Below, one piece after another: positions 38,443 to 56,350 of a DNA stretch of 64,000 nt. The position numbers and the translations under genes were made by a program. Within the stretch, counting starts at the first letter, position 1. Every line of letters starts with the position of its first letter. The notes beneath the pieces were generated by a model. It saw only the letters and a program-made list of their open reading frames with translations, was not told the origin of the DNA and made no database searches. Source of the stretch: an uncultured bacterium (GTDB taxonomy: Bacteria > Hinthialibacterota > Hinthialibacteria > OLB16); assembly GCA_964481775.1 (NCBI GenBank), contig CAYZUX010000001.1, positions 16,840-80,839 of the forward strand, in the 5' to 3' direction.

Positions 38443-38521
38443 CCCGGTGTACCCGAATTCCTTTAAGACTGGGGCGGCATCAATCGTGTGGCTCACGCTT
38501 GATGCCCAAACCAAAACTGGT

Positions 38522-39124
38522 TCAGAACTGATAACCTCTCCCTCCAAAGTATTTCAGGTCGCCATTACTGTCCGTTCCATTGGTTGGATTATATGGGATA
38601 GGTCCTTGAGGTGGACTCAAACGGGCTCCACTGAAACGATCATTATCACGGTCAGGTCCCCAGCCACGCATCTGGTAAGGTGCGCGAATCATTCTTCCCT
38701 GTATATCGTAAAACTCGATGAGTGCTCCTTGGGCCAGGTCATCATAAAGGAAGTAATCAAAGGTTCTGAACTCATTGTATGGCGGCTGTTCGCCATTGCC
38801 ATTAAAGATGTCATCGGGGACGATAGACATGTACTTCACTGGTGTAGTCAAAGGGACAAGTCGTTGGAGGTAGCTTTTGAAATTTCCCGGTGTCTTGTTG
38901 ATGACTCCGGAGATGTACTGCTGGTAATCACCGCGATAAGCCTCGAGTGCTGTCGCCACTGACCTCATATCAGCATAATTGCGTGTTATTTTGGCGCGTA
39001 CTTGAGCTGAAAGAAAGTTGGGAAGCGCAATCGCGATCAGTATGAGAATAATGGCGATGACGATCAGCAACTCGATCAGGGTAAAACCACGGCGGGACAA
39101 CACGATTAGAACCTCCTTCTGCAT
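38522..39124 (-). CDS. GspG-like pseudopilin / prepilin-type N-terminal cleavage-methylation domain protein (paralogue 2 of 3)
   Basis: MQKEVLIVLSRR|GFTLIELLIVIAIILILIAIALPNFLSAQVRAKITRNYADMRSVATALEAY with C-terminus NPTNGTDSNGDLKYFGGRG. The track ORF begins 17 codons upstream at 39175. A start at 39124 would give a 12-aa leader like that of paralogue 1. Confidence 0.85.
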   Translation of the reverse strand: MQKEVLIVLSRRGFTLIELLIVIAIILILIAIALPNFLSAQVRAKITRNYADMRSVATALEAYRGDYQQYISGVINKTPGNFKSYLQRLVPLTTPVKYMSIVPDDIFNGNGEQPPYNEFRTFDYFLYDDLAQGALIEFYDIQGRMIRAPYQMRGWGPDRDNDRFSGARLSPPQGPIPYNPTNGTDSNGDLKYFGGRGYQF

Positions 39125-39202
39125 ACAACTCTTTGACTTGGGAAAAAACTGGCTGGAAGTGGGGAGGGTGATCAAACCGGCCCACTTCCAGCCAGCAAAA
39201 GT

Positions 39203-41260: not shown

Positions 41261-42301
41261 ATGCGTAGGACCCTTAAAGATATTGCCAATGAAGTGAATC
41301 TCTCGGTAAACACCGTTTCTCGAGCCTTACGGGGTTTTCCGGGAGTCAGTGAGGAAAACCGGCGTCGTATCCAGCAACTGGCAAAGACATATAACTATGT
41401 TCCTTCCAGGGATGCCCGGAACCTCGTTCTTCAGAGTTCTCAATCCATTGGAGTTCTTGTTCCTGACTTGAGGATCCCTTACCTGGGAGAGATCACCTCT
41501 TTTCTTCAGCAAGCCCTCCAGGAAAAAGGCTACTTCAGTTACGTTCTGACCACATCCGACAACACCGAGCAGTCAAGTAAATGCGCCGAATCCCTCGTGG
41601 AGCGACGGGTGGATGGATTGATTTCCATGACCGTTCTGACTCCCCAAACCATCGAAATGCTTCGATATCACCGAATCCCCCTGTTGTATCTGGTGGTTTA
41701 TGGGGGAGAGCTCCCATTGCACTTTGTTGGGTATGATGATGAAGTTGGGGGATGCCTCGCCGCCAAGCACCTGATCGATATTGGGCACAAGAGGATCGCC
41801 TATTTCACAGGGAACTGGGAGACTGATTCGTTTCGTACACCACGCTGCCAGGGATTCCTGAGAGCCATCAGGGAATCGAATGGGGCAGTCCAGCCTCTGC
41901 TGTTTCCCCATGTCTATGCGGACACTGCCAAAGCGGGATACGCCTGCTCACGCGAGATCGTAGAACGGATTCGTAGCAAAGAGGTTCAGGCTGTCTTTTG
42001 TGTCTGTGATGCAGTGGCACTCGGACTCATGCACAGGCTCTATGAAGAAAAGATCCGGGTGCCTGAAGATGTTTCGATCATCGGCTATGACAACATCGAG
42101 ATGGCCGAGTTTTCCACCCCACCTCTAACCACAATCTGGCAAGATGCCGAGCGGATAGCACGTCTTGGAACTATGTTGATTCTCCAGATGCTCGGTTCAG
42201 AAGAAGACTGGGACAAAGTGCGTCAGCAGGTTTTCCTTGAACCCACGCTGATTCTGCGCAAATCCACCCAATACACATCGTCTTCATCCCCAACAGTATA
42301 A
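41261..42301 (+). CDS. LacI-family transcriptional regulator
   Basis: N-terminal HTH (LKDIANEVNLSVNTVSRALRG) plus a periplasmic-binding-fold effector domain. It is divergent from the beta-helix/pseudopilin operon and convergent with the ABC permease operon. Confidence 0.85.
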   Translation: MRRTLKDIANEVNLSVNTVSRALRGFPGVSEENRRRIQQLAKTYNYVPSRDARNLVLQSSQSIGVLVPDLRIPYLGEITSFLQQALQEKGYFSYVLTTSDNTEQSSKCAESLVERRVDGLISMTVLTPQTIEMLRYHRIPLLYLVVYGGELPLHFVGYDDEVGGCLAAKHLIDIGHKRIAYFTGNWETDSFRTPRCQGFLRAIRESNGAVQPLLFPHVYADTAKAGYACSREIVERIRSKEVQAVFCVCDAVALGLMHRLYEEKIRVPEDVSIIGYDNIEMAEFSTPPLTTIWQDAERIARLGTMLILQMLGSEEDWDKVRQQVFLEPTLILRKSTQYTSSSSPTV

Positions 42302-42415: not shown

Positions 42416-42520
42416 GTGGATTCCCGCTTTCGCGGAGTTGACGAGACAAGCAAATTTCCTCGTAAATCGTCTTTCCCGCGAAAGCGGGAATCCACGGTTG
42501 CCACTCTTTTCAACAGGCTG
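42416..42520 (+). repeat. Palindromic intergenic repeat element, copy 1 (long hairpin)
   Basis: Arms gtggattcccgctttcgcggagttgacgaga and tcgtctttcccgcgaaagcgggaatccac are inverted repeats around a ~20-nt loop. The tail ggttgccactcttttcaacaggctgc follows. A near-identical element is at 63837..63945. It sits exactly between convergent stops (42301 and 42521). Confidence 0.8.
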
Positions 42521-43423
42521 CTATCCCTTGATCGCTCCAGACGCAAGGCCGCTGATAAATTCTTTTTGAAGAAGGAAGAAAAGAAAGATAACAGGCAGCA
42601 CGGATAAAAGGGTTCCTGCCATGAGCGTGCCATATTCCTGTGAATAAACGCCCACCATCTGGTTGAGACCGATGGGGAGAGTGAAACGATCCTGAGAGTG
42701 AAGAATGATCTGGGGCCATAGAAAACTGTTCCATGCTCCCATGAACGAAATCAGTGAGAAAGCCCCGATCATGGGACGTGAGACAGGGAGTGCGATGTCC
42801 CAGTAAAGGCGGAATTCACTACAGCCATCAATACGTCCGGCGAACAACAGGTCATCAGGTATGTTCATCATGGATTGACGGAACAGGAACATTCCGAACA
42901 CACTCACACCACCTGGCACAATGAGCCCCATGTAGGTGTCCACAAGACCCATGTTGAAAATCAGCTCATACAAAGGTGCCATGAGGACCTGCGAGGGTAT
43001 CATCATGGTGCCCAGCATCAGCCCCATCACGAAACGTTTTCCCTTGAAATCATATTTGGCGAGCGCAAATCCACCAAGTGATGAAAAGAAGAGTTGGATG
43101 GTCACAGTAGTTCCTGCAACGAAGCAGCTATTCATGAAAAAGCGTAGGAAACGAACATCCTCAAAGAGCTGCCTGAAATTATGGAAGTCGATTTTTGGAA
43201 TTAAGGTGAGAAGCCAGATCCCGATGGAAGTGATCCCTCCCCCTGGCCCCATTATTTTCTGGATAGCTTCATCATCCATGAGGGGGGCAAAGAACACATA
43301 GTGAAAAAGATCGTCAGGTCCCTTGAAACTGGCCGCAACCAGCCACAAGAGGGGAGTCAGCATGATGACAGCGCTGAAGATCAGGGCGGAATAGAGCAGG
43401 ACCAGAAAAAAGGCCTTCTTCAT
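42521..43423 (-). CDS. Carbohydrate ABC transporter permease (MalG-type)
   Basis: EAA-loop DDLLFAGRIDGCSEFRLYWDIALPVSRP with 6 TM segments. Confidence 0.85.
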   Translation of the reverse strand: MKKAFFLVLLYSALIFSAVIMLTPLLWLVAASFKGPDDLFHYVFFAPLMDDEAIQKIMGPGGGITSIGIWLLTLIPKIDFHNFRQLFEDVRFLRFFMNSCFVAGTTVTIQLFFSSLGGFALAKYDFKGKRFVMGLMLGTMMIPSQVLMAPLYELIFNMGLVDTYMGLIVPGGVSVFGMFLFRQSMMNIPDDLLFAGRIDGCSEFRLYWDIALPVSRPMIGAFSLISFMGAWNSFLWPQIILHSQDRFTLPIGLNQMVGVYSQEYGTLMAGTLLSVLPVIFLFFLLQKEFISGLASGAIKG

Positions 43424-43424
43424 G

Positions 43425-44330
43425 CTAATCCTGCCTTTTCCACATGCCAGTCAGGTGGATTTGAAGCATGGAAATCAGAAATACGAGGATAGCGAGAGTC
43501 CATCCGATGGTTGAGGCAAAACCGAGGTCTCCGTTTACGAAACCATTCATATAAAGATACATCACGATGGTCAGACCGGCTCCATCAGGACCTGCGCCGT
43601 TGCCAAGCATGACAAAGGGTAATTCAAAAAGCTGAAAGGATCCAATCGTGGCCAGGATCATGACAAATACGGTCACCTCGCGAATGCCTGGCAAGGTGAT
43701 ATGCAGAAAACGCTGAAATGGATTGGCCCCATCAACGTAGGCCGCATCGTAGAGATCGAGATCGACATTCTGTAGCGCAGCCAGGAAATAAATCATGTTG
43801 AATCCGACATACATCCAAAGTGAAGTCAGGATCAGGGCTGGCATGACAAGGGAGGAGTTTCCCAGCCATTTGGTATCAAGATCGAGCCCAATCAGAAAAT
43901 GCAATGCCCGGTTCAACAGGCCGAAGTGAGGGACAAAAATAACAGAAAAAAGGACTCCCACGAAAACTTGTCCAACCAGGTGGGGAGAAAAAAAAGCAAA
44001 CCGGAAGAAATGACGTCCACGAACTCCACCCTGGTTCAGAAGCAGGGCAAGTCCCAGGCTCATGGGAAGTTGAACCAAAACGGAAAAGAAGGTAAAGATC
44101 GAAGTGTTGAAGACAGCCTTGTGGAAGTCAGGATCGGAAAGAAGGAGACGGAAATTTTCAAGACCCACAAAAACATGCGACTTGGGACCATCCGTGATAT
44201 AAAAAGCCAGGATGAGACTTTTTACAAGAGGATAAAGTCCAAAAGTCAAAAAGAGAATCAGGAAAGGGGAAATGAAAAGATAAGGGGCATACTTCTTCCG
44301 GCTGGCATTGGAGATCAATTCAATCTTCAT
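43425..44330 (-). CDS. Carbohydrate ABC transporter permease (MalF-type)
   Basis: EAA-loop YDAAYVDGANPFQRFLHITLP; polytopic. Confidence 0.85.
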   Translation of the reverse strand: MKIELISNASRKKYAPYLFISPFLILFLTFGLYPLVKSLILAFYITDGPKSHVFVGLENFRLLLSDPDFHKAVFNTSIFTFFSVLVQLPMSLGLALLLNQGGVRGRHFFRFAFFSPHLVGQVFVGVLFSVIFVPHFGLLNRALHFLIGLDLDTKWLGNSSLVMPALILTSLWMYVGFNMIYFLAALQNVDLDLYDAAYVDGANPFQRFLHITLPGIREVTVFVMILATIGSFQLFELPFVMLGNGAGPDGAGLTIVMYLYMNGFVNGDLGFASTIGWTLAILVFLISMLQIHLTGMWKRQD

Positions 44331-44335
44331 TGTGG

Positions 44336-45718
44336 TTAAAATCGATTCCGAGCCATGAAAAATCGTACTGAATCGGCAGCCTCTCTGAGAGTCCTTTCGG
44401 CAAAACCTTCAAAACCCGTGGGTCCATATGAACGATAATAGGCGGCGCAGGAAGACACAGCCTCACCCAGTTTCTGTTTTGCCGTGCTGACATACGGACT
44501 TGTATACTGGGGAGGGACTTCCTCGGCAAGGTTGACATACATGCGTCCAACCGGCTGACCAGACCAATAAGGATCAGGACGGTCAAACGAGGAATGGGTC
44601 CAGGCATCTTTCAATGGAGGTATGATGTTGGTCTCCTGGAATCGCTGCGCAAGTTCATCCGGCTGAAGGTATAACTGCTCGGCGGCCTGCAAGGCCAGAT
44701 CCCTGTGGGGAGATTTCTTGCTGATCGCAAGCATGGTTCCCCCTTGGGTGCTGGTTCTCCTTCCACCTGGAAACGCAACGGGCAGGGGACGGAGAGCCAT
44801 TTTTCCGGCTACCCGGGGGACATATATCTCCGTGGTTTTGCTTCTCCAGTCCGGGCAGAGAAATGTGAGAAAGTAACCTTTTTCCAATGCCTGTGTAAAC
44901 ACGCGTCCCGCGGCCAGGTCGGTCCCGATACGGTCTGGTCCAGCCACCAATGGAATATACCATTTCAGTGTCTCCAAGCCGATCTCATTGTCGAAGATGA
45001 GTTCGCCATCCTCGTTGAAATAACCTCCTCCGCGTTGAAAGAGGAACATCTCCAACTGCGATGAATTGCTGTCAGAAAGCTCAATGGCATACCTCTGATC
45101 AGGAACTGTCAGTTGCCTTCCCAGCGCAATGAATTCCTCCCAGGTGTTAATTTCTGTCAGGTCCACTCCCATCTCTTCAAATAAGTCTTTGCGATAGGCC
45201 AGCATGACAGGGCAAACAGCCTTGGGGAGACCATAAATGCACCCCCGGTTGCTGTATGGTGCCAGACGGGAATGGAGAATCCGCTGGTAGTAACCGCTTG
45301 ATATGAGCCATGGTTTCAGATCGAGGAATCCAACCTCCTCGAGTGGTCCTCTGAAGAAAGTTCCTGCGGAGCTGATCTCCACCTCGGCAAGGTCAGGAAC
45401 ATCCAGGTCTGCCCAGAAGGCCGCTCGGAGGCGGTGGGTCACTGCATCCGGGTGAACAAGCTGCAGGTCAACGCTTACCCCGGGATGGGCAGACTCAAAT
45501 GCTGAGATCACCTTTTTATACGAGTTCAGGTGGGTCAGGGCGAAACTCCAGAGATGCAGGGTTGCCAACTTGTCACCAGGAGGGTTAAACAAGAGCCACC
45601 CGCCAGAGATCATTGCCAGAAACAGCAGGACAGTAGGTCCTTTCCCAAAGGGGAAGCTGTTCACCAGGTATTCGGCTCCATTACCATGTGATGCACAATA
45701 CGCAATTCGACTGCACAT
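44336..45718 (-). CDS. ABC transporter extracellular solute-binding protein (family 1, sugar)
   Basis: N-terminal membrane anchor/signal (VLLFLAMISGGWLLF) and SBP_bac_1-like length and composition. It is first in an SBP-permease-permease set. Confidence 0.75.
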   Translation of the reverse strand: MCSRIAYCASHGNGAEYLVNSFPFGKGPTVLLFLAMISGGWLLFNPPGDKLATLHLWSFALTHLNSYKKVISAFESAHPGVSVDLQLVHPDAVTHRLRAAFWADLDVPDLAEVEISSAGTFFRGPLEEVGFLDLKPWLISSGYYQRILHSRLAPYSNRGCIYGLPKAVCPVMLAYRKDLFEEMGVDLTEINTWEEFIALGRQLTVPDQRYAIELSDSNSSQLEMFLFQRGGGYFNEDGELIFDNEIGLETLKWYIPLVAGPDRIGTDLAAGRVFTQALEKGYFLTFLCPDWRSKTTEIYVPRVAGKMALRPLPVAFPGGRRTSTQGGTMLAISKKSPHRDLALQAAEQLYLQPDELAQRFQETNIIPPLKDAWTHSSFDRPDPYWSGQPVGRMYVNLAEEVPPQYTSPYVSTAKQKLGEAVSSCAAYYRSYGPTGFEGFAERTLREAADSVRFFMARNRF

Positions 45719-45788
45719 CCTATCAGGAATGAGTCAGGAAAGGAATTCTCCAGTATGTGGGCCTTCACGATTGGATTTCTCAGTTCGA

Positions 45789-47768
45789 TCAATACAACGG
45801 CCAGTTCATCATGCCTGACTGCCTTGGAGCTGAAAACTTGACGTTGTCGATAACAAGACCGAAACCCTCCCCCGGATGAGACTCGGTTGGAACCCAAACA
45901 ATATTGGAAACTTCACTGAGGTTCACTCCATCAGAGCCTGTAGTAAATGATAATAAGGGGATGTGGATAAGTTTTGGTTGATCGATGTCTTCAAGCAGGA
46001 CATGAGGTTGAAGATAACCTTTGAATCCAGCGGCGACATGACTCCGGTCTTCCAGGCGAACGCTATACGAAGATCCTTCAGTTTTGAGAATGTTAAATTC
46101 CAGAGCTTCATATCCATTGAGATCCATTGTAACAGTCATGGAAGGACCGAAACGAGTTACAACCCCCGCGAAAGAATATCCTCCTTCGGCAGGGGGGATG
46201 GAACCGGTGGCTGAAAAAGCAGAATTGCTGTTACCCAATCCCGGATGGACGATTGACTTTGAAAGAGCACCACAGGGATTGCAGATTCCATTCCCGTCAA
46301 AGACCTCCCAATTTCCACCTATGTGGTTGCTAAAATCGTTATCCTCCAGGTCGTCAATAAGAATATCATTGATGATAATGGGTGTCGGCGTTGGTGTCGG
46401 TTGAATTTCCGACTTCTTTGTAAATTGAATATTGTCTACGGTTATGCCAAAAGGAGACCCTGAAGAATCTGTCTGTAATGTCCAGACAATCTTTTGGATT
46501 GCTCTGAGATCAACTGGATTGGGTCCATTAGCGAATAATGAGAGGGGAAAGGAAATTCGTTCTGTCTCGCCTGGATGAGTCGTGATAGGTATATTTGTTG
46601 AATTATAGGTTTGATGCTTGTCTTCAAGACGGACCTGGTAGGGACCACCCATGCTTACCGAAAAATCAAATTCAAGCAGGTGGAAGCGGGAAGCATCGAA
46701 CTGATTGTTTTGAATATCCTTGGAGAGTTCTGTGACGAGTCCTCCATAATTGAAGGATGGAGCAAATCCCGGAAGGGCCCCTGATGCCTGAAAAGCATGG
46801 GAACTGTTCCCAAGGCCGGGGACCTGCAATTGACCAATTATGGTTGAGGAAGGTCCTGTATCGTTTCCGGAAAAAGTGGTCCAGATCCCTTGAAGATTAT
46901 TTATATTATTCCCATCTTCAAAATGATCCACAACCAACGAATTGGGTGGAGATGTGGGAGGAAAGTGGAAAAAGTCTGTCACCAGGAACTCATCACCAAA
47001 GCCAGATTGGGGGGAATTGCCATCAATAAGCCAGAAATTGAATCGGAAATTTTCCTGACCGGCTGGAGGAACATCCGGGCCGTTGTTGGCCCAGTTATAG
47101 ATGAGATCTTCTGGCGGGGCGGTGCCAGGAAAATGGTGACCATGGTAGGTCGAAAACTCGACACGACCGGTCGTCCAGTTCATTATCAAAGTGAGCTCCT
47201 GGCTTGCTGATGATAGTTCGACTGCATATCGAACAAGATTTCCAGGAGTATCATAGGGTTGAACAACGAACTGTGCGTTAGTGGGATCCAGCGGATTCCC
47301 CCACCTGGAGAATTCAAAGTCCAACTCCCGATAATGATATTGGGGAGCTCCTCCATCCCATGTGAATAGTCCGGCAACCATATTGGGATCAATCCTATCC
47401 AATCGGCTGCGTGTTTGTATGACGTAGGTTCCATATCCAAGGTTTTCCTGCAGAACACATTCCGTGCAATACCATTTTCCTGACTGTTGGCTGATGGTTA
47501 GATGGAGTCCGTCACTGTCTGTCCAGATATCCGAGGCTGATCCGGAAAAATAATTTGGTCCCGGCCCCACACGAGACTCACTCTCTTTAACAAGCCATGT
47601 CCGTCCGGCGAATTCGAGGAATCTGGCTCCATAAACAGGCCCGGAAAAAAGTCCAATCAATTCCCATCCCACAATCATAATAGGATAGAGTCTTGATCGA
47701 TTCAAACTCAATATCAAATCCAGGTGCATTGTGAAAAAAGGTGCCCGTGCCCCGGAGAGGTGAGGCAC
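45789..47768 (-). CDS. Secreted GH16-like beta-jelly-roll glycanase (ExDxE motif) followed by two CBM11/CIA30-like beta-sandwich modules
   Basis: The N-terminal domain has YGTYVIQTRSRLDRIDPNMVAGLFTWDGG...YRELDFEFSRWGNP, where ELDFE matches the GH16/GH7-type E-x-D-x-E. Two C-terminal modules (VDHFEDGNNINNLQGIWTTF..ITVDNIQF and IDDLEDNDFSNHIGGNWEVF..LVIDNVKF) are separated by a PTPTPTP linker. Confidence 0.6.
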   Translation of the reverse strand: MPHLSGARAPFFTMHLDLILSLNRSRLYPIMIVGWELIGLFSGPVYGARFLEFAGRTWLVKESESRVGPGPNYFSGSASDIWTDSDGLHLTISQQSGKWYCTECVLQENLGYGTYVIQTRSRLDRIDPNMVAGLFTWDGGAPQYHYRELDFEFSRWGNPLDPTNAQFVVQPYDTPGNLVRYAVELSSASQELTLIMNWTTGRVEFSTYHGHHFPGTAPPEDLIYNWANNGPDVPPAGQENFRFNFWLIDGNSPQSGFGDEFLVTDFFHFPPTSPPNSLVVDHFEDGNNINNLQGIWTTFSGNDTGPSSTIIGQLQVPGLGNSSHAFQASGALPGFAPSFNYGGLVTELSKDIQNNQFDASRFHLLEFDFSVSMGGPYQVRLEDKHQTYNSTNIPITTHPGETERISFPLSLFANGPNPVDLRAIQKIVWTLQTDSSGSPFGITVDNIQFTKKSEIQPTPTPTPIIINDILIDDLEDNDFSNHIGGNWEVFDGNGICNPCGALSKSIVHPGLGNSNSAFSATGSIPPAEGGYSFAGVVTRFGPSMTVTMDLNGYEALEFNILKTEGSSYSVRLEDRSHVAAGFKGYLQPHVLLEDIDQPKLIHIPLLSFTTGSDGVNLSEVSNIVWVPTESHPGEGFGLVIDNVKFSAPRQSGMMNWPLY

Positions 47769-47838
47769 GGGCGATAAATCGTATCATCCCAACTGGTGGA
47801 GAGGTTGAATGGATGAATCCCGCTTTTGAGCATACAAC

Positions 47839-49596
47839 TTATTCATGAAGGTACCATTGCTCAACTGCGCTAGCGGGTTCTGTGCCAATAAAGAGCACGT
47901 TGTCAATGGTTAGCACGAATGGATCATCCCCCATATCGGTTTGGGGGACCCAAACGATTGTGGCGACTTTGGTTAGGTCAAGAGCTTCAGGACCAGTCGT
48001 GAATGAACTCAGGGGTATCTTTACTGTTGTGGTGGTATTTGGAGGAACATCAAAGTTGACATGGGGTTGCAGATACCCAAGGTACCCGGCAGCAATGTGA
48101 GGTGCATCTTCAATTCTCACGCGATAGGGACCTCCCTGGGAAACCTTGATGTCAAACTGGAGGTAGAGATGATTCGCGATATTGATGGAGGAGGTGGGTG
48201 TGGGTCCTACACGGACATTGACTCCACCGTATACGTAACCATCCAAGGGAGGCATTTGGCCCGTAACACAGAATGAGTATGCCCCAGAGAGCGGGACGCA
48301 ATCCGTGGCAATATGGATGGTTCCACAGGGGGATGGGCATGAAGCATTTCCGCTGAAGGTTTCCCAAAGTCCACCCAGTTCACAAATAAAGTTTCCATCC
48401 TCCAAGTCGTCGACAAGAACATTTTTGTCCGCTGGTAACGGCGGGATAGGAGTTGGAGTGGGTATAGGCGTCCCCTGGCCGGTAAAATAAACATTATCAA
48501 TGATCAAGCCGAAGGGTGAACTGTCACCCGGTGTCTGTAAATCCCAGATAATCTGACGGGCATCTCTCAGGTCAATCAGGTTTCCGCCATCTGGAGTACC
48601 GCCAGTGGTCAGATCCGCGAGGGGTATAATAACATGGGTTTCCACATTTGGGGGAAGATTCAGATTGATGAACGCTGAATTGTATGTGTTCAACGAATCC
48701 TCTACTCGGACTTTATAGGGGCCCCCATCGGTGACCAATGCATTGAACTCAAGGTTGATCGCCCCCGAAATATCCAAGGTCCCGAGTGGGCAACCTACCC
48801 CGCCAAAATTGTAACCCCCTTCGAGTGGAGGAAGTGTCCCGGATACCGCAACTCCCACTTCCGTAGAACCGAGTCCTGGTGTGGTAGGAGCAATGTTCAA
48901 GTGACCATAGGAGGGATTTGAAACACCATTGCCTTCGAAAACAAACCAGACCCCTGAAAGTTCATTTGTAAGATCCGCATCCTCGGCATCCTCCACCAAA
49001 ATCGGATCGATAAATTTTACGTTGTCGATTGTGATACCGAAGGGGACGCTGTCACCCGATGCTTGAAGGTCCCAGACAATGTTGGTGGCTGCTGAAAAGT
49101 TGATAGGATTTCCACCATCTGGTGCCGTAGCGAGTTTAGACAGGGGGATGATCACATGAGTGGTCAGTCCCTCAGTTAAACTCAGGTTCACAAATGCCGA
49201 ATTGAAAGTTTGAACTCCATCTTCCACCCTTACCTTGTAGGGTCCGCCGGCGGTGACCAGGATGTCGAATTCCAGGATGGTTGTGCCAGAAATATCTCGT
49301 GTTCCAAGGGGACACTGAACACCACCGTAGTTGAAACCACCTACAACGGGTGGTAATTGTCCGCTGACAACAATCGCGGTGCTGCTTCCTCCAAGTCCCG
49401 CCCCTGTCGTGAGGATCAAGTTGCCACCAGTGGATCCACTTCCATTTCCTTCAAAAACCGACCATGTTCCCCCAAGTTCATTCGATAAATTGGCATCCTC
49501 AACCGTATCCACAACGATATCTTGCGACAGGCAAGGTGTTGCCAGCAAGAGCAGCAGCAAAAAGAATGTGAAACCGAATTGTAACTGACTTTTCAT
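47839..49596 (-). CDS. Secreted protein made of four tandem CBM11/CIA30-like carbohydrate-binding-type modules
   Basis: Signal peptide MKSQLQFGFTFFLLLLLLATPCLS. Four ~140-aa repeats each begin (V/I/L)(V/I)(D/E)(T/D/A/L)(V/A/L)ED.. and end ..(T/I)IDNV.F. The last two are joined by a TPIPTPTPIPP linker. The same module type occurs in the neighbouring GH16-like gene. Confidence 0.7.
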   Translation of the reverse strand: MKSQLQFGFTFFLLLLLLATPCLSQDIVVDTVEDANLSNELGGTWSVFEGNGSGSTGGNLILTTGAGLGGSSTAIVVSGQLPPVVGGFNYGGVQCPLGTRDISGTTILEFDILVTAGGPYKVRVEDGVQTFNSAFVNLSLTEGLTTHVIIPLSKLATAPDGGNPINFSAATNIVWDLQASGDSVPFGITIDNVKFIDPILVEDAEDADLTNELSGVWFVFEGNGVSNPSYGHLNIAPTTPGLGSTEVGVAVSGTLPPLEGGYNFGGVGCPLGTLDISGAINLEFNALVTDGGPYKVRVEDSLNTYNSAFINLNLPPNVETHVIIPLADLTTGGTPDGGNLIDLRDARQIIWDLQTPGDSSPFGLIIDNVYFTGQGTPIPTPTPIPPLPADKNVLVDDLEDGNFICELGGLWETFSGNASCPSPCGTIHIATDCVPLSGAYSFCVTGQMPPLDGYVYGGVNVRVGPTPTSSINIANHLYLQFDIKVSQGGPYRVRIEDAPHIAAGYLGYLQPHVNFDVPPNTTTTVKIPLSSFTTGPEALDLTKVATIVWVPQTDMGDDPFVLTIDNVLFIGTEPASAVEQWYLHE

Positions 49597-49656
49597 GATT
49601 AATCCTCCATTCGACCATTTTACTATCCATCTGCTCATTTCCATGAGTCATCTCAG

Positions 49657-50231
49657 CTAAAATGGACCCACGCGAAGTATGTCACCATTGCTCTGAGTGC
49701 CATTGGTGGGGGAGTAAAAGATCTCACGTATATTCTTTACACGGTAAGGATCCATGACGATATCAATATCTCTGTCGGGACCTTGAGATGCGATGTACCA
49801 TTCCGATTTTCTCCCCAGGATGGTGGTCAGGATCTGCTTGAAGAAAACTTCACCCTCCCATGTATTCTTCAATGGAACAATAAAATCAAAGACCCTGTAT
49901 TGCTTGGGATTTGTGTTCCAATCACTCAGGATGACATCATCCCCAAACTGGTCGATGGGAAATCCCGCGATATATTTCACGGGTGTTGTCAAATGAACCC
50001 ATCTTTGCTCGATATAGCGGGTATTTGCAGCGGCTGGATATTTCTTGAAGTCAAGATGATATGCCTCAAGGGCAATACCATACGAGCGAATTTCCGCCGT
50101 CACTTTCGTAACCTTCGCCCGAAGCTGGGCTTCGAGGAAGTTGGGTAATGCAATAGCGATAAGAATCAGAATGATTGCAATGACTATCAGCAGTTCAATT
50201 AAGGTGAATCCCTGTCTTGATATTGTCCGCA
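49657..50231 (-). CDS. GspG-like pseudopilin / prepilin-type N-terminal cleavage-methylation domain protein (paralogue 3 of 3)
   Basis: MRTISRQ|GFTLIELLIVIAIILILIAIALPNFLEAQLRAKVTKVTAEIRSYGIALEAY with C-terminus SPTNGTQSNGDILRVGPF. AAAGAGGA lies 8 nt upstream of the ATG at 50231; the track ORF starts 12 codons earlier at 50268. Confidence 0.85.
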
Positions 50232-50271
50232 TCTGGTTATCCTCTTTTTCCATCTGTTTGTCTGGCACGGA

Positions 50272-53200
50272 TTATTTCGTTTCAAGCCAGACTTTAAGTG
50301 TGTCACATTTTCGGTCCCGGATTCGTTCGACCTCAGATACGGCAAGATTTGAGATCTGAACAGGTTCTTCATCATCTATCGATATCAGGCCTGGACGAAC
50401 GGCATTAGTCCCATAAGTATTGCTGCGAGCCGGATTGATATAGATGAGCAGGATCTTGCCCAGAAAAACACAGGTGAATGTGTTACCTGGAATTGGAACT
50501 TCTTTGCCGTTCCATTGAAGTGTGGTTTCATCTGGATGAAACCAGGTTCCGGGCAGGACCGGTGATAGTGAAAGACGTAAAAGCCCATTCTGCGTGTAAA
50601 ATGGGCGCTCTCCCACGGTCAAAATGAGCCAGATATGAATGAACTCCGCTGTTGCACCGGATAACCTTGCAACAAATCCCTGGCCACGAACCTTTGGATC
50701 GGGGCAAACACTCGAGGCAATGAAAGAGCTATTTTCCAGGATGCTCCTGCCATAGATGGCGGGATCCATGAATGGAACAAGCATCGTCTCGGAATCTCTG
50801 AAGAACTGGTCAATCAATCCTGCTCGGAGGATTTCAAGGAGATACTTGTAACTCATGTGCGGCCAGACAGATTCATTCTCGAACCAGCCACGTGTAAAGG
50901 TACGCGCGCGCCCGATAGTTGCAGGCCAACTTCTCAGGGAATCGTTCAGCTTGTACATGCATAATGCGTGGTCAAAAAGAGGGCTATTACGGACGCTCCG
51001 GTATATCTGGAGGGCTTTCCCGGGATCCTCCATATTCCTGAGCAAATGTACCTGCCCTTCCAGAAAAAGGGGAAGGCTTTCATGGTGAAAGTTCGTTATG
51101 CTTACACCGGTGATGTCTTGCCCGATACGGGAAGGATCGGTAACGTCCACAGCTGAGAAATTTCCGGGTTTCCCGATGTAGTAAGTATGAACCAAGCCTG
51201 TTTCAGGGTCTTTGGCGGCCTCAAGACCCTTGCTAGCTTTACACTCCACAGCCTGTAGCAAAGTCTCGAGGTGATTTCCTTCAATCGACTTCGTCAAGCC
51301 GGTTGTCGTCTGGTAAACCCGGTGGCGGAAGTCTTCCCTGAGATGGGTCGCTGAATCCCAATTGGCATCCTGCTCCCGAAGAAGCGTTATGGCTGATTCC
51401 AGGAACTCAGCCACTTCCAGGGGAAATGTTGTTGTGGGAGGCTGGGGCAAGTTTTTCCGGAGCCAACGCGCCAGACGCGCCAGCTCGGCAGTCTCACAAG
51501 TTGAGGATCCAAAGAGAGCAGGGAGCCCATTAAGCGAGTCATTCCAGCCGGGACGCCCTGCCTCCATCTCGATACCGATGCCTTGGGAATCAAACGAAAG
51601 GGCTTTGACTGCACAGAGGGTACAAAGCTTGGCAAATGGTGTGACAGGTGGAAGGCCCTGATGGATTGGAGGACCATCCTGGACAGCATGGAGTTGCAGA
51701 GGGCCTTGTGGACGAAGCTGGTACTTTTCGCTGCGATCCTTCACCCTGGCTCCATTCCAGAACCAACCAATATCCGCAGTTTCTGTCAGCATCGATTGCA
51801 GCTCATCAGGCCAAATTGCGGCAAAGGATTCCAGCAGATCTGTGACATAGGTCCAGTGATCGATCCAATAACCACCCTCATGACCCGATGCGGCCAGCGT
51901 GGTGTCGCAATGCTGCAGGATTCTGAATGCCCAACTCCAAACACGAGTAGCAGGTATTTCGTGCCGCATGGCCCATGCAACCAGGGACCCCGGAGAGAAA
52001 GGATGCTCAAGTATCCGCTTAAGACTCTCCAGCGAGGACCCTGAAACATCGGACAACAACTCCTCAAGACAGAGATTCCTGGGGAAAATCCAGCGATACC
52101 CATCGATCGCCAGAGGATTATACCCATCCGCCTGGATCAGAGAGAGAAACAAGCGGATCTCGGTATCTTTCAGTTCCGGGTGAAACCACACATTATGCCG
52201 CCGATTCTGCAGGATATCCCGGAAATTTCCGGGACCGCTGGAGAGTGGTTCATCGGGAACGACAAAATCGTTGTAATCCCTTTCAAGATCTCCATGCCTG
52301 CGTCCATAAAGATAGACTGGACGGTCCCCCTCACGACTGGGAAGAAACTCCGGTATCCCTCCTCGCAGAAGGTTGTCAAGGTAATTTTGACGGCAATAAG
52401 CGTCGAACTCAGGCCGGCTGGAACGGGTGAAAGCGGGAAGCGTGACAGAATGAATCAGGTCTTTGCTGGCTTGGCTGAAACGCTGAATGTCATCCTGATG
52501 CCGGACTTGCTGGAGGAAATGATTAGCCATTGATTCATGATGAGCATGGCCAAACATCTCAATGAGTCTGATGGATTTCCCCGCCTCCAGGATGGTTTCC
52601 ACCCCCGCAAATGCGCAGGGCATCCGGTTCTCCCATACCTGGCCGTTACGATCCAGATGGTCCTCTTCAATGAAAATTCTCGGTATCACCAGGTCATTAC
52701 CGATTCCAAATACAATGCCTGGATCCACCACGGGTTCAATGGGGTGAAGCTTGTCTCCATCCATTAACCAGGCGGCAAAGAAGTTTCCTTCCTCAACTTC
52801 CCCCACCTCGGCTTCGTCATGGACTCGGACACGTGATGAATAGAATGCCGTTGAACCACCAATGAGACGTACCGAAGCGTAGGCCTCGTGAATCCGTCTC
52901 ATCTTCTTGATTCCAAAATCGGTGAATCCCGCAGGCAGAATGAGTGGCAATCCATCCAGGACGGAGACCTTGACCTGCCCTGTACTTCTGTTGGTTATCT
53001 TCACAACCCTGATCAAGGCGGCCACGGGCTGGTCGACTACACTGAGATACTGCATTTCAAATTGGAGTGGATAACTGCTGGGGACTTCACTGATTTTTAT
53101 ACGGTCTGATTCGATCGTCAGTAAGCGCCGGCTCCTGGTGCTTTCCCGCGAAAGATTGTTCTGGAAAGGTTCATAATAAGTGTTTCCCGTCTTACAAAAA

Positions 53201-53556
53201 GTCCTGAAACCCTGGAGTCCCACCATCTGATAGGCCCAGGTTGCCGGCAAAAACTCGGCGATGGCATGATCTTTGTCTCTGACACCAAATGAGACGACAC
53301 ACTGTGCACGGTTGACATACAGACACCACAGTGGAATTCCTTGTCGACCGGCAATTCCCGGCAGGAAACTCGAGAAGGGCGGTCCTTGATCGTATTGAAA
53401 GATCTGAAAAGAGCCATCCGGAGTTAGCTGATAAAGGGGCTTCCGGGGCTTGCGCCTGGACTTATCAACCTTGCCAGCGGGTTCCTTATCTGGAGAACAC
53501 TCCATGAGTTGGGAGGCTGGATCGCTGATCAGAGACTCAAGGGACATGGCACACAT
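50272..53556 (-). CDS. Large, apparently cytoplasmic (alpha/alpha)6-type glycoside phosphorylase/hydrolase-like protein (GH94-like WND motif)
   Basis: No signal peptide. An N-terminal beta-sandwich-like region (GIPLWCLYVNRAQCVVSFGVRDKDHAIAEF) is followed by a large helical domain containing GRPGWNDSLNGLP, which resembles the GH94 catalytic-acid region (DWND). The first ~88 codons of the track ORF (to 53820) look non-coding, so the start is placed at an internal Met (~53556) and is uncertain. Confidence 0.5.
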   Translation of the reverse strand: MCAMSLESLISDPASQLMECSPDKEPAGKVDKSRRKPRKPLYQLTPDGSFQIFQYDQGPPFSSFLPGIAGRQGIPLWCLYVNRAQCVVSFGVRDKDHAIAEFLPATWAYQMVGLQGFRTFCKTGNTYYEPFQNNLSRESTRSRRLLTIESDRIKISEVPSSYPLQFEMQYLSVVDQPVAALIRVVKITNRSTGQVKVSVLDGLPLILPAGFTDFGIKKMRRIHEAYASVRLIGGSTAFYSSRVRVHDEAEVGEVEEGNFFAAWLMDGDKLHPIEPVVDPGIVFGIGNDLVIPRIFIEEDHLDRNGQVWENRMPCAFAGVETILEAGKSIRLIEMFGHAHHESMANHFLQQVRHQDDIQRFSQASKDLIHSVTLPAFTRSSRPEFDAYCRQNYLDNLLRGGIPEFLPSREGDRPVYLYGRRHGDLERDYNDFVVPDEPLSSGPGNFRDILQNRRHNVWFHPELKDTEIRLFLSLIQADGYNPLAIDGYRWIFPRNLCLEELLSDVSGSSLESLKRILEHPFSPGSLVAWAMRHEIPATRVWSWAFRILQHCDTTLAASGHEGGYWIDHWTYVTDLLESFAAIWPDELQSMLTETADIGWFWNGARVKDRSEKYQLRPQGPLQLHAVQDGPPIHQGLPPVTPFAKLCTLCAVKALSFDSQGIGIEMEAGRPGWNDSLNGLPALFGSSTCETAELARLARWLRKNLPQPPTTTFPLEVAEFLESAITLLREQDANWDSATHLREDFRHRVYQTTTGLTKSIEGNHLETLLQAVECKASKGLEAAKDPETGLVHTYYIGKPGNFSAVDVTDPSRIGQDITGVSITNFHHESLPLFLEGQVHLLRNMEDPGKALQIYRSVRNSPLFDHALCMYKLNDSLRSWPATIGRARTFTRGWFENESVWPHMSYKYLLEILRAGLIDQFFRDSETMLVPFMDPAIYGRSILENSSFIASSVCPDPKVRGQGFVARLSGATAEFIHIWLILTVGERPFYTQNGLLRLSLSPVLPGTWFHPDETTLQWNGKEVPIPGNTFTCVFLGKILLIYINPARSNTYGTNAVRPGLISIDDEEPVQISNLAVSEVERIRDRKCDTLKVWLETK

Positions 53557-53844
53557 GATGGTCACGTTAACAACGATAGGTCCAAAAAAGTCTCTTGTCA
53601 AGCGAGTATTGTGTAAAACGTATACAGGATAATCCCGGTTGGGTTTCGTAAGTCTAATAAAATCAATATAAAAAAGTAATTTTACTGGGTTTCTTCTGGC
53701 TTGGTACTTGTCCCTCTCGAAGCTTTGGAGAACTGTATTTGCCAGATACCAGCCATCCGGAATCCCGTTTTTATATTGGCTTGACAAGCCAATATACGAC
53801 AAGTATGTTATGGATAACATAAGTCAGTTCAGGCACTTTTTTCT

Positions 53845-54972
53845 ATGCAACGAACCAAAAAGCAACCTGCGATCAATAAGAGGAAGCCGCTTTACAAATC
53901 CGGACGAGAAGCATCCCGGCAGCGAGGCACCGCCTCGAAAGCCTCCGAAGTAGCCAAACGTGCCCGGGTCTCCTTGATGACAGTTTCCCGGGTGTTCAGT
54001 AATCCCGGGGTAGTCTCTTCCGAAACAAGACAGAGGGTTCTTGCCGCGGCCACTGAGCTCGGCTATGAGTCCAACCATGCAGCCCGGGTTCTCCGGACTG
54101 GTCAATCCAATGCGGTTGGTTTGCTGATGGCTTCCCATATGTCCTTGCGAGGGGGATTCCATTCTGAATTCCTTGCGGCCTTTGAATCGCAGGCTTCCAA
54201 GGGAGGTCTGGAAGTCATTATCTCTGCCTCCAATTCCGATGAACCTCTCTGGAAACGTGCCCAACGCCTGGTGGCATCACGGACTTGTGGTGGCCTGGTT
54301 GTCCGGTATGACCTCCTCTCCGAAAAAGAAGTCGGTGAGCTTTCCAAGGTAGATGCACCGTTGGTTCTGGCCAACTATCACAGGGATCTCCCTCTTGTAA
54401 AAATGGGCCTACATTCGGTTGGTTTTGATAACAAGGAGGGAACCCGCAGCGCGGTTCGTCATCTTGTCGCCTTGGGCCATAAACGGATTGCTTATCTGGG
54501 TGGTACGCCGGGATGGATGGATTCCGTGGATCGTGAGGAAGGTTTCCGTGCGGGAATGCACGAGGCGGAACTGGAGGTGGAAGAAAGCTGGATTGAACCC
54601 TGTAATTTCTCCGAAGGTTTTGATGCCGCTTTTGAGAGGACAGCACAAATTCTGAGCCGGAAAGTGGAAGGTCCCACCGCGCTTGTTTGTGCTTCCGATG
54701 AAATCGCCGCGGGCGCAATGGCTTGTCTTCGTCGTTGGGGAAAAAAGGTTCCCAAGGACTTCTCTGTGACTGGGTTCGATGACAACCGCTGGTGTGCTTA
54801 CCTTTCCACCCCACTCACCACGATTCGCCATAGTGGTTGGGCCTTGGGTGAGGCAGTAGGGACACTCCTCATCGATCTGATGAAAAGCGACAGTTTCATC
54901 CCGGTCCGGGAGGTAGTCCTGGAGCTACAACTGATTGTCCGTGAATCGACCGGACCTGCTCCAGGCAACTGA
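53845..54972 (+). CDS. LacI-family transcriptional regulator
   Basis: HTH ASEVAKRARVSLMTVSRVFSN plus a sugar-binding-fold effector domain. It is divergent from the GH94-like/pseudopilin/CBM/GH16 operon and leads the downstream ABC/GH16 operon. Confidence 0.85.
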   Translation: MQRTKKQPAINKRKPLYKSGREASRQRGTASKASEVAKRARVSLMTVSRVFSNPGVVSSETRQRVLAAATELGYESNHAARVLRTGQSNAVGLLMASHMSLRGGFHSEFLAAFESQASKGGLEVIISASNSDEPLWKRAQRLVASRTCGGLVVRYDLLSEKEVGELSKVDAPLVLANYHRDLPLVKMGLHSVGFDNKEGTRSAVRHLVALGHKRIAYLGGTPGWMDSVDREEGFRAGMHEAELEVEESWIEPCNFSEGFDAAFERTAQILSRKVEGPTALVCASDEIAAGAMACLRRWGKKVPKDFSVTGFDDNRWCAYLSTPLTTIRHSGWALGEAVGTLLIDLMKSDSFIPVREVVLELQLIVRESTGPAPGN

Positions 54973-54979
54973 TTCAATC

Positions 54980-56350
54980 ATGTTCCACGCCACATCGGAT
55001 ACAATGCATCACCCATGGCGGTCTATCGGCCTGATCGTTTTCATGTCCGGTGTGTGGATTTCCTGCCAATACCCTATGGAAAATGAATCCAGTGGCCGGG
55101 TAATCTTGAAGTACTGGGAGAAATGGACAGGATCTGAAGGCCAGGCTATGCGGGAAATTGTGGATGCCTTCAATGCCTCCCAGGACCGGTACTTTGTCAA
55201 CTACATGGAGGTGGGAGGCAGTCAGATTGACCGCAAACTGGTGGTGGCAATCGCTGGGGGAAACCCACCAGACATTGCAGGTTTCTGGAACGACCGTGTG
55301 GCTGACTATGTTCAGAATGGAGCACTGACTCCGATTGACAATCGGATGGCTAAGGCCGGCCTCCGGGTGGAGGATTACCTCCCGGCGGTGATGAACTGCT
55401 GCCGTTATGAAGGACATACTTGGGGGCTCCCTTTGACTCCAGCCACCCTTGCCCTTTTCTATAACAGGAAACTTTTCCGGGAAGCTGGCTTGGATCCGGA
55501 TCGTCCACCTGAAACGATTGGGGAGTTGGATGCCTACGCTGAAAAACTGACTCAACGTGACCCCCAAGGAAAAATCCTCACTCTCGGTTTTTCTCCCGAT
55601 ATTCCTGGTTGGTGGAATCACCTCTGGGGATTCTGGTTTGAAGGGAACCTTTGGGATGCGGATTCAGGTATCACTGTCTCGACCCACTCTCAGCTTGCTG
55701 CTTTGCAGTGGGCCCAGGCATACTTCAAGAAATACGGGGTACGTGAACTCGACCGTTTCAAAGCAGCGGCGGAAAATTTTGATTCCCCCCAGTGGCCTTT
55801 TTTCAGCGAACACCTCGCCATGGTCATTCAGGGCGTCTGGACCTCCAACTTTATTGGACGTCATGCACCCCATCTGGACTGGGGCGTGGCCCCTTTTCCC
55901 TCCGCTTCGACCGGAACCGGTACGGTTACTTTTCTTCAGTGTGACTTGCTGGTAATTCCCAAAGGCTGCCTGCATCCTGATGGGGCCTGGGAATTTGTCA
56001 GGTTTACTCAAAAACCTGAGAATCTGGAGAAACTGAATACTCTGCACCATAAATTCTCACCCCTGGCAGATGTTTCCGCGAAATTCTACCGTGAGCATCC
56101 GAATCCTCATATCCGGCTTTTCCGGGAGTTGGCCACCACGGGCCAGATTCATGTGGCGCCACCGATACCCAGATTCAGCGAGTTACAGAGGTGGATGATC
56201 CACTCCTTCAACCAGGTCTGCAAATCTGGAAGTGACCCGGTCGAAGTGCTCCAGGAGGCCCAGGCCGAGGTTCAGAAAGGCTACAACCGGGCTCTCCAAC
56301 AGTGGAATCGTGTGGCGGAGAATCGACGGAAACAATGGATGGAACCATGA
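54980..56350 (+). CDS. ABC transporter extracellular solute-binding protein (family 1, sugar)
   Basis: N-terminal anchor IGLIVFMSGVWISC and an SBP_bac_1-like sequence (KYWEKWTGSEGQAMREIVDAFNASQDRYFVNYMEVGG). Confidence 0.8.
   Translation: MFHATSDTMHHPWRSIGLIVFMSGVWISCQYPMENESSGRVILKYWEKWTGSEGQAMREIVDAFNASQDRYFVNYMEVGGSQIDRKLVVAIAGGNPPDIAGFWNDRVADYVQNGALTPIDNRMAKAGLRVEDYLPAVMNCCRYEGHTWGLPLTPATLALFYNRKLFREAGLDPDRPPETIGELDAYAEKLTQRDPQGKILTLGFSPDIPGWWNHLWGFWFEGNLWDADSGITVSTHSQLAALQWAQAYFKKYGVRELDRFKAAAENFDSPQWPFFSEHLAMVIQGVWTSNFIGRHAPHLDWGVAPFPSASTGTGTVTFLQCDLLVIPKGCLHPDGAWEFVRFTQKPENLEKLNTLHHKFSPLADVSAKFYREHPNPHIRLFRELATTGQIHVAPPIPRFSELQRWMIHSFNQVCKSGSDPVEVLQEAQAEVQKGYNRALQQWNRVAENRRKQWMEP

Follow-up and report, generated by a model that had tools for sequence, protein, structure and literature searches.

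The closest described relatives of the locus treated here are the gene clusters built around phosphorylases of glycoside hydrolase family 161 (GH161) in Firmicutes and Mollicutes, such as those of Paenibacillus polymyxa (PapP) and of Acholeplasma laidlawii with its GH161-permeases-GH16-GH3 row (Kuhaudomlarp et al. 2019, PMC6484121), where GH161 genes adjoin ATP-binding cassette (ABC) transporter and GH16 genes, and the characterised enzymes phosphorolyse beta-1,3-oligoglucans (PMC6484121; bioRxiv 10.1101/2025.04.05.647330). A locus of the same logic, in which the polymer would be cut outside, the oligosaccharides imported and then phosphorolysed inside by a cytoplasmic GH161 enzyme whose gene adjoins those of a sugar ABC importer and of a GH16 laminarinase, lies in a stretch of 64,000 nucleotides of contig CAYZUX010000001.1 from an uncultured bacterium (the whole stretch is called the window below). 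It differs from the Firmicutes and Mollicutes clusters in its two divergent, putatively LacI-controlled units, its two importers, its proteins with CBM11-like modules (CBM, carbohydrate-binding module) and its pilin-like gene, in having no GH1, GH3 or GH94 laminaribiose partner, and in its diderm, Planctomycetota-like host, to whose lineage it extends the GH161 loci.

Proteins of the type IV pilin type have been tied to polysaccharide capture in other settings, namely the Pil-type cellulose-binding proteins of Ruminococcus albus, the pilins of Caldicellulosiruptor and the fibres of Planctopirus and Gemmata (PMC5394234); those cases concern whole pilus loci or adhesion phenotypes, whereas the window has single pilin genes within substrate-specific operons, flanked by proteins that share a short C-terminal tail (tagged proteins). 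The literature searched yielded no description of pseudopilins in polysaccharide loci of Phycisphaerae or Kiritimatiellota, or of a pilin-linked C-terminal signal, and pilin genes embedded in such operons, together with the tail, are undescribed in that literature; the beta-glucan pathway is of a known kind. The reading we favour, with some reserve, is that of a LacI-regulated locus for a beta-1,3-glucan of the laminarin type, arranged in two divergent units, with a pilin-linked export or display of the tagged neighbours. The analysis demonstrates the protein families, the conserved gene order, and the tail with its association with pilin genes, and from these the substrate, the regulation and each link between pilin and tail are inferred.

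Enzymes, binding modules and substrate

Pfam and NCBIfam scans gave nothing significant for the phosphorylase (1182 residues as the longest open reading frame, ORF) or for the 659- and 601-residue proteins of the same row; the phosphorylase, a GH16-like domain and a repeated binding module were identified through sequence searches of the PDB, profile searches and structure prediction. The phosphorylase aligned over about 960 residues (137-1097) with 9qqk (GH161A; E 1.5e-182) and 9h8v (E 2.7e-182), and the GH149 structure 6hq6 was reached merely at E 7e-6; membership of GH149 was rejected because the NCBIfam GH149 score of 66 bits lies far under the 1150-bit cutoff. GH94, the family named in the preliminary description, has to be replaced by GH161, since no Pfam family matched at E <= 0.01 and no GH94 chain stood among the PDB matches. 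By its sequence the large enzyme belongs to GH161, which like GH94 is part of clan GH-Q, so that its wider placement among GH94/GH-Q-like phosphorylases stands.

The predicted catalytic loop GWNDSLNG (residues 670-677, counted from the start at 53556) aligns with GWYDALNG of 9qqk between identical flanking motifs and places the predicted catalytic Asp at codon 51538-51540. The related THA_1941 has a W-N-D catalytic loop with D625 and binds glucose-1-phosphate or phosphate through R345, R373, E840, S891 and S913 (bioRxiv 10.1101/2025.04.05.647330); E893, S944 and S966 of the window enzyme are spaced exactly as E840, S891 and S913, the three residues compared, and the surrounding motifs are identical to those of 9qqk. 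The protein has no signal peptide. Its start is ambiguous between the ATG codons at 53505, 53547 and 53556, the last being that of the preliminary description, with the longest ORF reaching to 53820; one of these three downstream codons should be the true start, because the PDB alignment begins only at ORF residue 137 and the orthologues measure 1063-1073 residues. The closest GH161 genes in GTDB representative genomes, at 48-55% identity, all come from metagenome-assembled genomes of Planctomycetota, mostly Phycisphaerae (Sedimentisphaerales, Anaerohalosphaeraceae), and those of other phyla are 35-39% identical. The identification as GH161 strengthens the beta-1,3 assignment, because it is beta-1,3-oligoglucans that the characterised members phosphorolyse.

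The repeated module occurs three times in the 601-residue non-catalytic protein (CBM11x3; residues 41-214, 215-391 and 404-592 of the ORF), which ends in the tail ...AVEQWYLHE, and twice (276-452 and 466-651) in the 659-residue protein, where the two copies follow a remote GH16 domain (about residues 45-285) and precede the tail ...GMMNWPLY. That one module type is common to the two adjacent genes had been proposed in the preliminary description and is borne out by self-comparison and alignment, the copies, each of about 175 residues, being 31-59% identical in pairs; the count given there, four in the 601-residue protein and six overall, has to be lowered to three and five, a fourth copy having been ruled out by the alignment. 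A profile of the five modules by itself found nothing useful in the PDB, and a deeper one was required: the extended profile (A3) reached the CBM11 of Clostridium thermocellum endoglucanase H (1V0A) at E 2.1e-13, followed by CIA30 and CBM30. The AlphaFold2 model (mean predicted local distance difference test score, pLDDT, 94.4) had CBM11 structures on Foldseek ranks 1-3 at template-modelling (TM) scores of 0.68-0.69, a complex with a beta-1,3-1,4 tetrasaccharide among them, and CIA30 was likewise matched by fold as well as by profile. The window modules fail the Pfam CBM_11 model, and just a sub-threshold CIA30 match (21.6 bits vs a cutoff of 24) was obtained; some of their distant relatives pass Pfam CBM_11 or CIA30 across the matched stretch. 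The earlier guess of CBM11 thus finds support in profile and fold (TM 0.69), and on the evidence of sequence and model the repeated module is a divergent CBM11. Like the CBM11 of C. thermocellum Lic26A-Cel5E (1V0A, 6R3M), the best match in profile and structure, the window modules are beta-sandwiches of about 175 residues; unlike it, to which they are about 15% identical, they miss the Pfam threshold, stand in tandem in a non-catalytic protein and joined to a GH16-like domain, and have a binding function that is predicted.

When 1.84 billion cluster representatives were searched exhaustively with a profile, 204 proteins showed the module at E <= 1e-3, as against 3 matches from a word-indexed homologue search with the 601-residue protein; the CBM11-like modules so defined form a rare family. 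Four proteins (P0125, P0127, P0129 and positions 2052-3626 of L092) join a distant relative of the module to a thioredoxin-like domain, and in L092 the gene of this protein has that of a tail-bearing CBM protein on one side and a probable GH161 / LacI / GH94 group on the other.

For the domain that precedes the modules in the 659-residue protein, curated models (Pfam PF00722, NCBIfam) gave no GH16 match, and the PDB sequence search with the protein by itself gave nothing useful; a deeper profile, made from the family, was required, and it aligned with Bacillus and Paenibacillus GH16 lichenases (E 4e-5) on the EIDIE motif (e.g. 1byh). The E-x-D-x-E residues (E104, D106, E108) are invariant across 60 aligned homologues. 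The AlphaFold2 model (pLDDT 94.8) retrieved GH16 structures in all of the top 25 Foldseek places (TM 0.53-0.64), with lichenases and laminarinases first, at 9-20% identity, and with one inactive pseudo-glucanase among them. With GH16 lichenases and laminarinases (1BYH, 1GBG, 3O5S, 5WUT) the domain therefore shares the beta-jelly-roll fold and the aligned catalytic motif; it differs from them in lacking a PF00722 match, in its low identity to any solved GH16 and in belonging to a family whose members the sources mostly label "hypothetical protein". The domain is, to judge from sequence and model, a remote GH16 relative that has kept the catalytic motif and is probably active, and it is for now best filed as GH16-like (clan GH-B). 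Its family has 294 matches at E <= 1e-3 among the candidates scored, and homologues adjoin GH161 in one planctomycete locus (L025) and two of Ignavibacteria (L040, L041); the locus flags a large unnamed family of enzymes overlooked by curated models.

These family assignments uphold the core of the preliminary description, that of a locus for the use of beta-1,3-glucan which combines a LacI regulator and ABC import with endo-glucanases, CBM proteins and a GH-Q phosphorylase, and the enzymatic pathway of cleavage and binding outside, ABC import and cytoplasmic phosphorolysis is well supported. Outside the cytoplasm, the GH16-Big_7-CBM6 laminarinase of the right-hand operon and the remote GH16-like enzyme with its two modules would cut the polymer, and the CBM11x3 protein would bind it; two binding-protein-dependent ABC importers, whose ATPase would be encoded elsewhere, would take up the oligosaccharides, from which the cytoplasmic GH161 enzyme would remove glucose units as glucose-1-phosphate.

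Among the other explanations, the first concerns the substrate, which may be mixed-linkage beta-1,3-1,4-glucan of the lichenan or cereal type, or another beta-glucan, and not laminarin, with the CBM11-like modules and the lichenase-like GH16 domain setting the specificity and GH161 trimming the beta-1,3-linked non-reducing ends. We regard this as unlikely: the best profile and structure match of the module, the C. thermocellum CBM11, was indeed solved with a beta-1,3-1,4 tetrasaccharide, the GH16-like domain finds its best matches among Bacillus lichenases, and PapP takes beta-linked disaccharides of any linkage as acceptors, but GH161 enzymes attack beta-1,3 linkages and leave cellotriose intact, the laminarinase of the partner operon is of the canonical GH16/CBM6 type, and related tagged CBM11-like proteins adjoin GH81, GH16/CBM6 and GH161/GH94, all of them beta-1,3-glucan enzymes. 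Identity to CBM11 and to the lichenases is, moreover, just 15-20%, so that their specificity cannot be transferred. Mixed-linkage beta-glucan could nevertheless be among the substrates, since the solved CBM11 binds it.

The pilin-like gene and the C-terminal tail

Gene order confirms the earlier placement of the pilin-like gene between the gene of the cytoplasmic phosphorylase and those of the secreted CBM proteins. The starts of its orthologues set its ATG at 50232, giving a protein of 191 residues with the prepilin leader MRTISRQG/FTLIELL (the slash marks the cleavage site), further MRTISRQG/FTLIELLIVIAIILILIAIALP, in which the Gly cleavage site, Glu5 and the hydrophobic helix of the superfamily are all found; Pfam N_methyl matches at E 1.3e-7 and TIGR02532 above its cutoff. 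Matches to the GspG and PilA models cover the first 60-110 residues and stay under the cutoffs, and identity as a GspG equivalog was rejected on the score of TIGR01710 (52.4 bits vs 88.85) and on finding no gsp operon in the window. The profile fits type IVa pilins at least as well as GspG, and only the N-terminal 65 residues or so match solved type IVa pilins or GspG. With GspG, PilA and Geobacter PilA-N the protein thus shares a class III signal peptide (G/FTLIE, Glu5) and a hydrophobic N-terminal helix; it differs from GspG and PilA in scoring under the family cut-offs, in a globular domain without a solved relative, for which Pfam, NCBIfam and comparison with solved pilins gave no match to a carbohydrate-binding family, and in its setting, the window pilins being encoded in sugar-utilisation operons, one divergent paralogue with a near-identical helix per cluster of carbohydrate-active enzymes (CAZymes). 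The pilin family is large (6276 matches at E <= 1e-3), its members being named GspG or prepilin-type and coming mostly from Omnitrophota and Sumerlaeota.

None of the GH161 loci compared from GTDB representative genomes has the arrangement of the window. Related Logan contigs from six other samples (L083, L085, L086-L089) hold the pilin-like gene in the same slot: L083 has GH161, pilin, CBM11x3 and GH16-like gene with two modules in the same order; L085 has both divergent operons, with GH16/CBM6, two permeases, substrate-binding protein (SBP) and LacI on one side and GH161, pilin and CBM11x3 on the other; and in four further samples (L086-L089) the junction of GH161, pilin and CBM11x3 recurs. 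The orthologous pilins are 75-76% identical (73% in the globular part), compared with 58% for GH161, 68% for CBM11x3 and 58-60% for the GH16-like protein, and the next homologues, at <= 50% identity, lie in unrelated contexts. Because it occupies the same slot in six other samples and is better conserved than its neighbours, the pilin-like gene is an integral part of the locus and not a passenger.

The window holds two further pilin paralogues. One, at 4411-5091 (plus strand), lies in a cluster with a 936-residue protein, a heparinase II/III-like lyase and a LamG protein; the other, at 38522-39175 (minus strand), lies in a cluster with a beta-helix protein, a 630-residue protein of no assigned family, a GH127-like protein, an SBP, two permeases and a LamG protein, which is divergent from another LacI gene (41261-42301). 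Each paralogue therefore sits in its own CAZyme cluster. The three are 37-43% identical overall, and their 34-residue N-terminal helix segment, with the common sequence GFTLIELLIVIAIILILIAIALPNFL, differs only at positions 26 and 30; together with the orthologue they share a near-identical helix and the motifs LTTPV.Y, GPD and Y.PTNGT.S.GD, and the middle of the protein differs. Longer prepilin-type genes often lie less than 10 kb from GH161 in other loci of Planctomycetota, sometimes directly after LacI, and in five loci (L011, L020, L021, L022, L025) a gene of about 360 residues, close to GH161 and GH16, directly follows or overlaps LacI and is read in the same direction. Other lineages too may therefore have pilin-like genes under sugar control, with enrichment over chance not established; the proximity is not relied on here because these genomes hold so many such paralogues.

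Seven signal-peptide-bearing proteins of the window, from unrelated families and among 45 ORFs, end in W-x-[LIMT]-[YFH]-(E/Q), usually after V-x-[DNQT]; the core form of this tail is V-x-[DN]-W-x-[LM]-[YF]-(E/Q), with the last E/Q optional. None of 304 ORFs from the remaining Planctomycetota GH161 loci and none of 593 ORFs of other phyla has the pattern, its rate at random internal positions is 0.0007, and it is retained in the orthologues. Five of the six immediate neighbours of the three window pilin genes are tagged (hypergeometric P 1.4e-4), the sixth being the cytoplasmic GH161 enzyme; of the seven tagged proteins, six flank a pilin-like gene. Elsewhere, 12 of 148 unrelated CBM11-like representatives carry the tail, one of them in a row of GH30, pilin (206 residues) and tagged protein, and others beside GH161/GH94 or GH16/GH81-GH3 genes without a called pilin, or alone.

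Choice-of-anchor domains typically come before C-terminal sorting signals. In the tagged protein 39203-40696, a choice-of-anchor Q domain (NCBIfam NF041518, E 1.3e-8; residues 444-483) ends 14 residues before the NWSLY tail, so that in this protein, as in known sorting systems, the tail directly follows such a domain. Like the signals of PEP-CTERM/exosortase, of LPXTG/sortase and of the type IX secretion system C-terminal domain (T9SS CTD), the tail occupies the extreme C-terminus of signal-peptide proteins from unrelated families; unlike them, it measures only some 7-9 protein-terminal residues, has no transmembrane helix, no basic cluster and no 80-residue domain, and has as its candidate partner a pilin-like protein in place of the dedicated sorting enzymes of the exosortase and sortase systems. 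NCBIfam sorting-domain models (PEP-CTERM, LPXTG, T9SS CTD and similar) matched none of the tagged proteins.

Explanations for the pilin and the tail

In the reading favoured here, the pilin would be assembled by way of its invariant N-terminal helix, by a type II secretion or type IV pilus apparatus whose genes lie elsewhere, and the resulting short fibre would export the neighbouring tail-bearing proteins or hold them at the cell surface. A pilin-based device for export or display is favoured because of the conservation of the pilin, the presence of one paralogue with a common helix per cluster, and the tagged neighbours; the position of a pilin next to tagged secreted glycan-binding proteins is a hint that these are exported or displayed by a route not recognised so far. 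That it is an undescribed system in its own right, with per-operon pilin subunits sharing a helix and with tails that target the neighbours to the pilin apparatus or dock them on it, we put forward only tentatively; if true, it would be a pilus-borne alternative to the SusCD-type or cellulosome-type organisation in a Planctomycetota-like lineage.

Several observations weigh against parts of this reading. Annotation scans of the window found no genes for secretion or pilus assembly (GspD/E/F, PilD; gsp, pil), nor a beta-glucosidase or GH94 gene for the step from laminaribiose to glucose. Mixed-linkage glucan is the polymer associated with CBM11 and with the closest GH16 structures, and the substrate may accordingly not be pure laminarin. 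Some tagged proteins have no pilin neighbour (22346-23764 in the window, and those of L093 and L094), the canonical GH16/CBM6 enzyme has no tail, and a metagenome scan with the pilin alignment gave three family pilins among the matches listed, none of them with a tagged neighbour. A hairpin followed by T6 within the minus-strand row speaks against one uniform transcript, and the Planctomycetota-like placement of the organism is drawn solely from the similarity of its GH161 and transporter genes.

The pilin itself may capture the glycan, forming a fibre, adhesive or retractile, that holds beta-glucan by its variable globular domain, the tails then being unrelated to it. Precedents lend this some appeal: gold-labelled dextran attaches to the fibres of Planctopirus and Gemmata (PMC5394234), the adhesion of Fimbriiglobus to chitin is reportedly aided by type IV pili (PMC11131199), and cellulose- and xylan-binding pilins are reported from Ruminococcus and Caldicellulosiruptor; it would also suit a near-identical helix and a divergent globular part in the paralogue of each window cluster. 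We nevertheless consider it improbable, as the globular domain matches no carbohydrate-binding family, five CBM11-like modules and one CBM6 are already encoded at the locus, and the tail common to the immediate neighbours would be left unexplained. Less probable still is that the pilin is a passenger from its very large paralogous family, PVC-type genomes holding dozens of pilin-like paralogues (PMC10632474), and the tail an unrelated, lineage-specific feature, for instance a cell-envelope attachment motif or a signal for PDZ proteases or quality control, with both merely marking neighbourhoods of secreted proteins, for while several tagged proteins do lack an adjoining pilin, the pilin has kept its slot and its sequence as the best conserved gene of a row whose enzymes diverged to 58%, five of its family's six immediate neighbours in the window are tagged, and the order of enzyme, pilin and tagged protein recurs with a GH30 gene elsewhere.

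Pilin-linked export or display touches the question of how Planctomycetota-like bacteria, which lack outer-membrane importers of the SusC/D type, capture and process polysaccharides. Dextran-binding fibres have been observed, and at the present locus one strongly conserved pilin-like gene is linked with a particular, defined substrate pathway; this pilin, together with the tail shared by its neighbours, offers a concrete, testable genetic handle on polysaccharide capture.

Gene layout, regulation and minor observations

The features of the locus and the tail-bearing proteins of the window are collected in Table 1. The minus-strand order of the preliminary description (phosphorylase, pilin, multi-module protein, GH16-like protein with modules, SBP, two permeases) is confirmed by the ORF listing and Pfam, as is the divergent LacI gene heading a row of SBP, two permeases and GH16-Big_7-CBM6 enzyme. 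The right-hand permeases are 34-35% identical to the Pfam-annotated ones of the left operon and match permease ORFs beside GH161 in Phycisphaerae loci, and their counterparts in L085 carry BPD_transp_1; the 529-residue GH16/CBM6 protein matches PF00722, and its equivalent occupies the same place in L085. The gaps of 3, 13 and 71 nt reported earlier derive from longest-ORF starts, and such tight spacing does not hold with orthologue starts, which give about 39 nt between GH161 and pilin, about 60 nt between pilin and CBM11x3, and 109-160 nt between CBM11x3 and the GH16-like gene. On L081, unrelated genes lie downstream of the GH16-like gene, so that the importer 3' of this gene in the window is an add-on; its permeases find their best match in a Halobacteroidaceae locus. 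At the position of this importer, directly 3' of the GH16-like gene, L083 has a fragment of an ISL3-family transposase (8464-8595).

Table 1. Features of the beta-glucan locus and C-terminal tails of the tagged proteins, in window coordinates
Feature	Positions	Strand	Basis or remark
Tail NWNMY	3605-4327		C-terminal codons
Tail DWSIYE	5141-7951		C-terminal codons
Tail NWSLFE	22346-23764		C-terminal codons; no pilin neighbour
Tail TWKTYQ	36655-38547		C-terminal codons
Tail NWSLY	39203-40696	-	C-terminal codons; 497-residue right-handed beta-helix protein
REP-like element, 20-nt inverted repeat	42416-42495		closes minus-strand row, between convergent genes
ABC permease 2	42521-43423	-	BPD_transp_1 (Pfam)
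ABC permease 1	43425-44330	-	BPD_transp_1 (Pfam)
SBP of sugar ABC importer	44336-45718	-	SBP_bac_1 and SBP_bac_8 (Pfam)
Secreted protein, remote GH16 domain and two CBM11-like modules	45789-47729	-	659-residue longest ORF 45789-47768; start ATG 47729 or 47678
Tail NWPLY	45789-47768	-	C-terminal codons; GH16-like protein
Terminator-like GC-rich hairpin, then T6	47733-47772	-	between CBM11x3 and GH16-like genes
Secreted non-catalytic protein, three CBM11-like modules (CBM11x3)	47839-49596	-	601-residue longest ORF 47839-49644
Tail QWYLHE	47839-49644	-	C-terminal codons; CBM11x3 protein
Type IV pilin-like (pseudopilin) protein, 191 residues	49657-50232	-	203-residue longest ORF 49657-50268
GH161 beta-1,3-glucan phosphorylase (predicted), cytoplasmic	50272-53556	-	1182-residue longest ORF 50272-53820
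Divergent control region	53557-53844		promoter-like sites and operator-like palindromes
LacI-family regulator, first gene of right-hand operon	53845-54972	+	LacI, Peripla_BP_1, Peripla_BP_3 (Pfam)
SBP of right-hand operon	54980-56350	+	SBP_bac_1; best matches in Phycisphaerae GH161 loci
Two permeases of right-hand importer	56302-58133 (56302-57234, 57231-58133)	+	ORFs and homology; no direct Pfam scan
Secreted canonical GH16-Big_7-CBM6 endo-beta-1,3-glucanase (predicted), 529 residues	58138-59727	+	Glyco_hydro_16 E 1.4e-22, Big_7, CBM_6

A sequence scan gave one promoter-like site on the minus strand (53601-53573) and one on the plus strand (53781-53809), and conservation was judged across the window, L085 and L083. 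The promoter of GH161, conserved in the three loci, consists of TTGACA, a spacer of 17-18 nt and TAnnnT, followed by a TGTTAACGT box. The palindrome ATGTTA-N4-TAACAT stands in perfect form beside the LacI promoter (53805-53820), as a single copy within the 64 kb, and in degenerate form at the GH161 promoter (53559-53572), where all three loci have a slightly degenerate version; the intergenic region of L085 holds two copies, against 0.10 expected over the whole 10.7-kb locus. ATGTTA-N4-TAACAT is probably an operator, to which the LacI protein would bind at both promoters. The CTTGNCAAG palindromes found at both promoter-like sites were rejected as operators, their 2 matches being reached in 37 of 100 shuffles and hence not significant; they are better explained as -35 boxes, ATGTTA-N4-TAACAT being the better candidate. 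The spacing of 7-8 nt from LacI to the SBP gene and its position are the same in L085. With the LacI domains in the regulator and palindromes at both regulated promoters, the locus has the features of a LacI-family regulated sugar operon with a predicted operator.

The stop codon of CBM11x3 and the start of the GH16-like gene are separated by a hairpin (47772-47743) that has a GC stem of 9-11 bp and runs into T6, and a GC-rich hairpin of different sequence, without a T-tract, occupies the same position in L083, L081 and L086. A terminator-like element at this point makes the single operon of about 11 kb proposed in the preliminary description doubtful. Because the orthologous hairpins lack the T-tract, partial termination or stabilisation of the mRNA is likelier than a hard stop; we read the hairpin as setting a higher level of the GH161, pilin and CBM11x3 message, through partial termination or a stabilising 3' structure, without taking it to prove that there are two independent operons. 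An Rfam scan of the whole window found nothing, so that the hairpin belongs to no known RNA family.

The element resembling repetitive extragenic palindromic (REP) sequences is built of two perfectly inverted 20-nt arms, GTGGATTCCCGCTTTCGCGG ... CCGCGAAAGCGGGAATCCAC, which stand 40 nt apart, and has TTTTCAACAGGCTG as a conserved flank; the copies at 42416-42495 and 63836-63915 are identical, one at about 29274-29330 is degenerate, and every copy lies at gene ends. Elsewhere in the window, 23991-25979 (minus strand) encodes a 662-residue fusion of an FGE-sulfatase (sulfatase-modifying-factor-like) domain and a BNR/sialidase-like beta-propeller.

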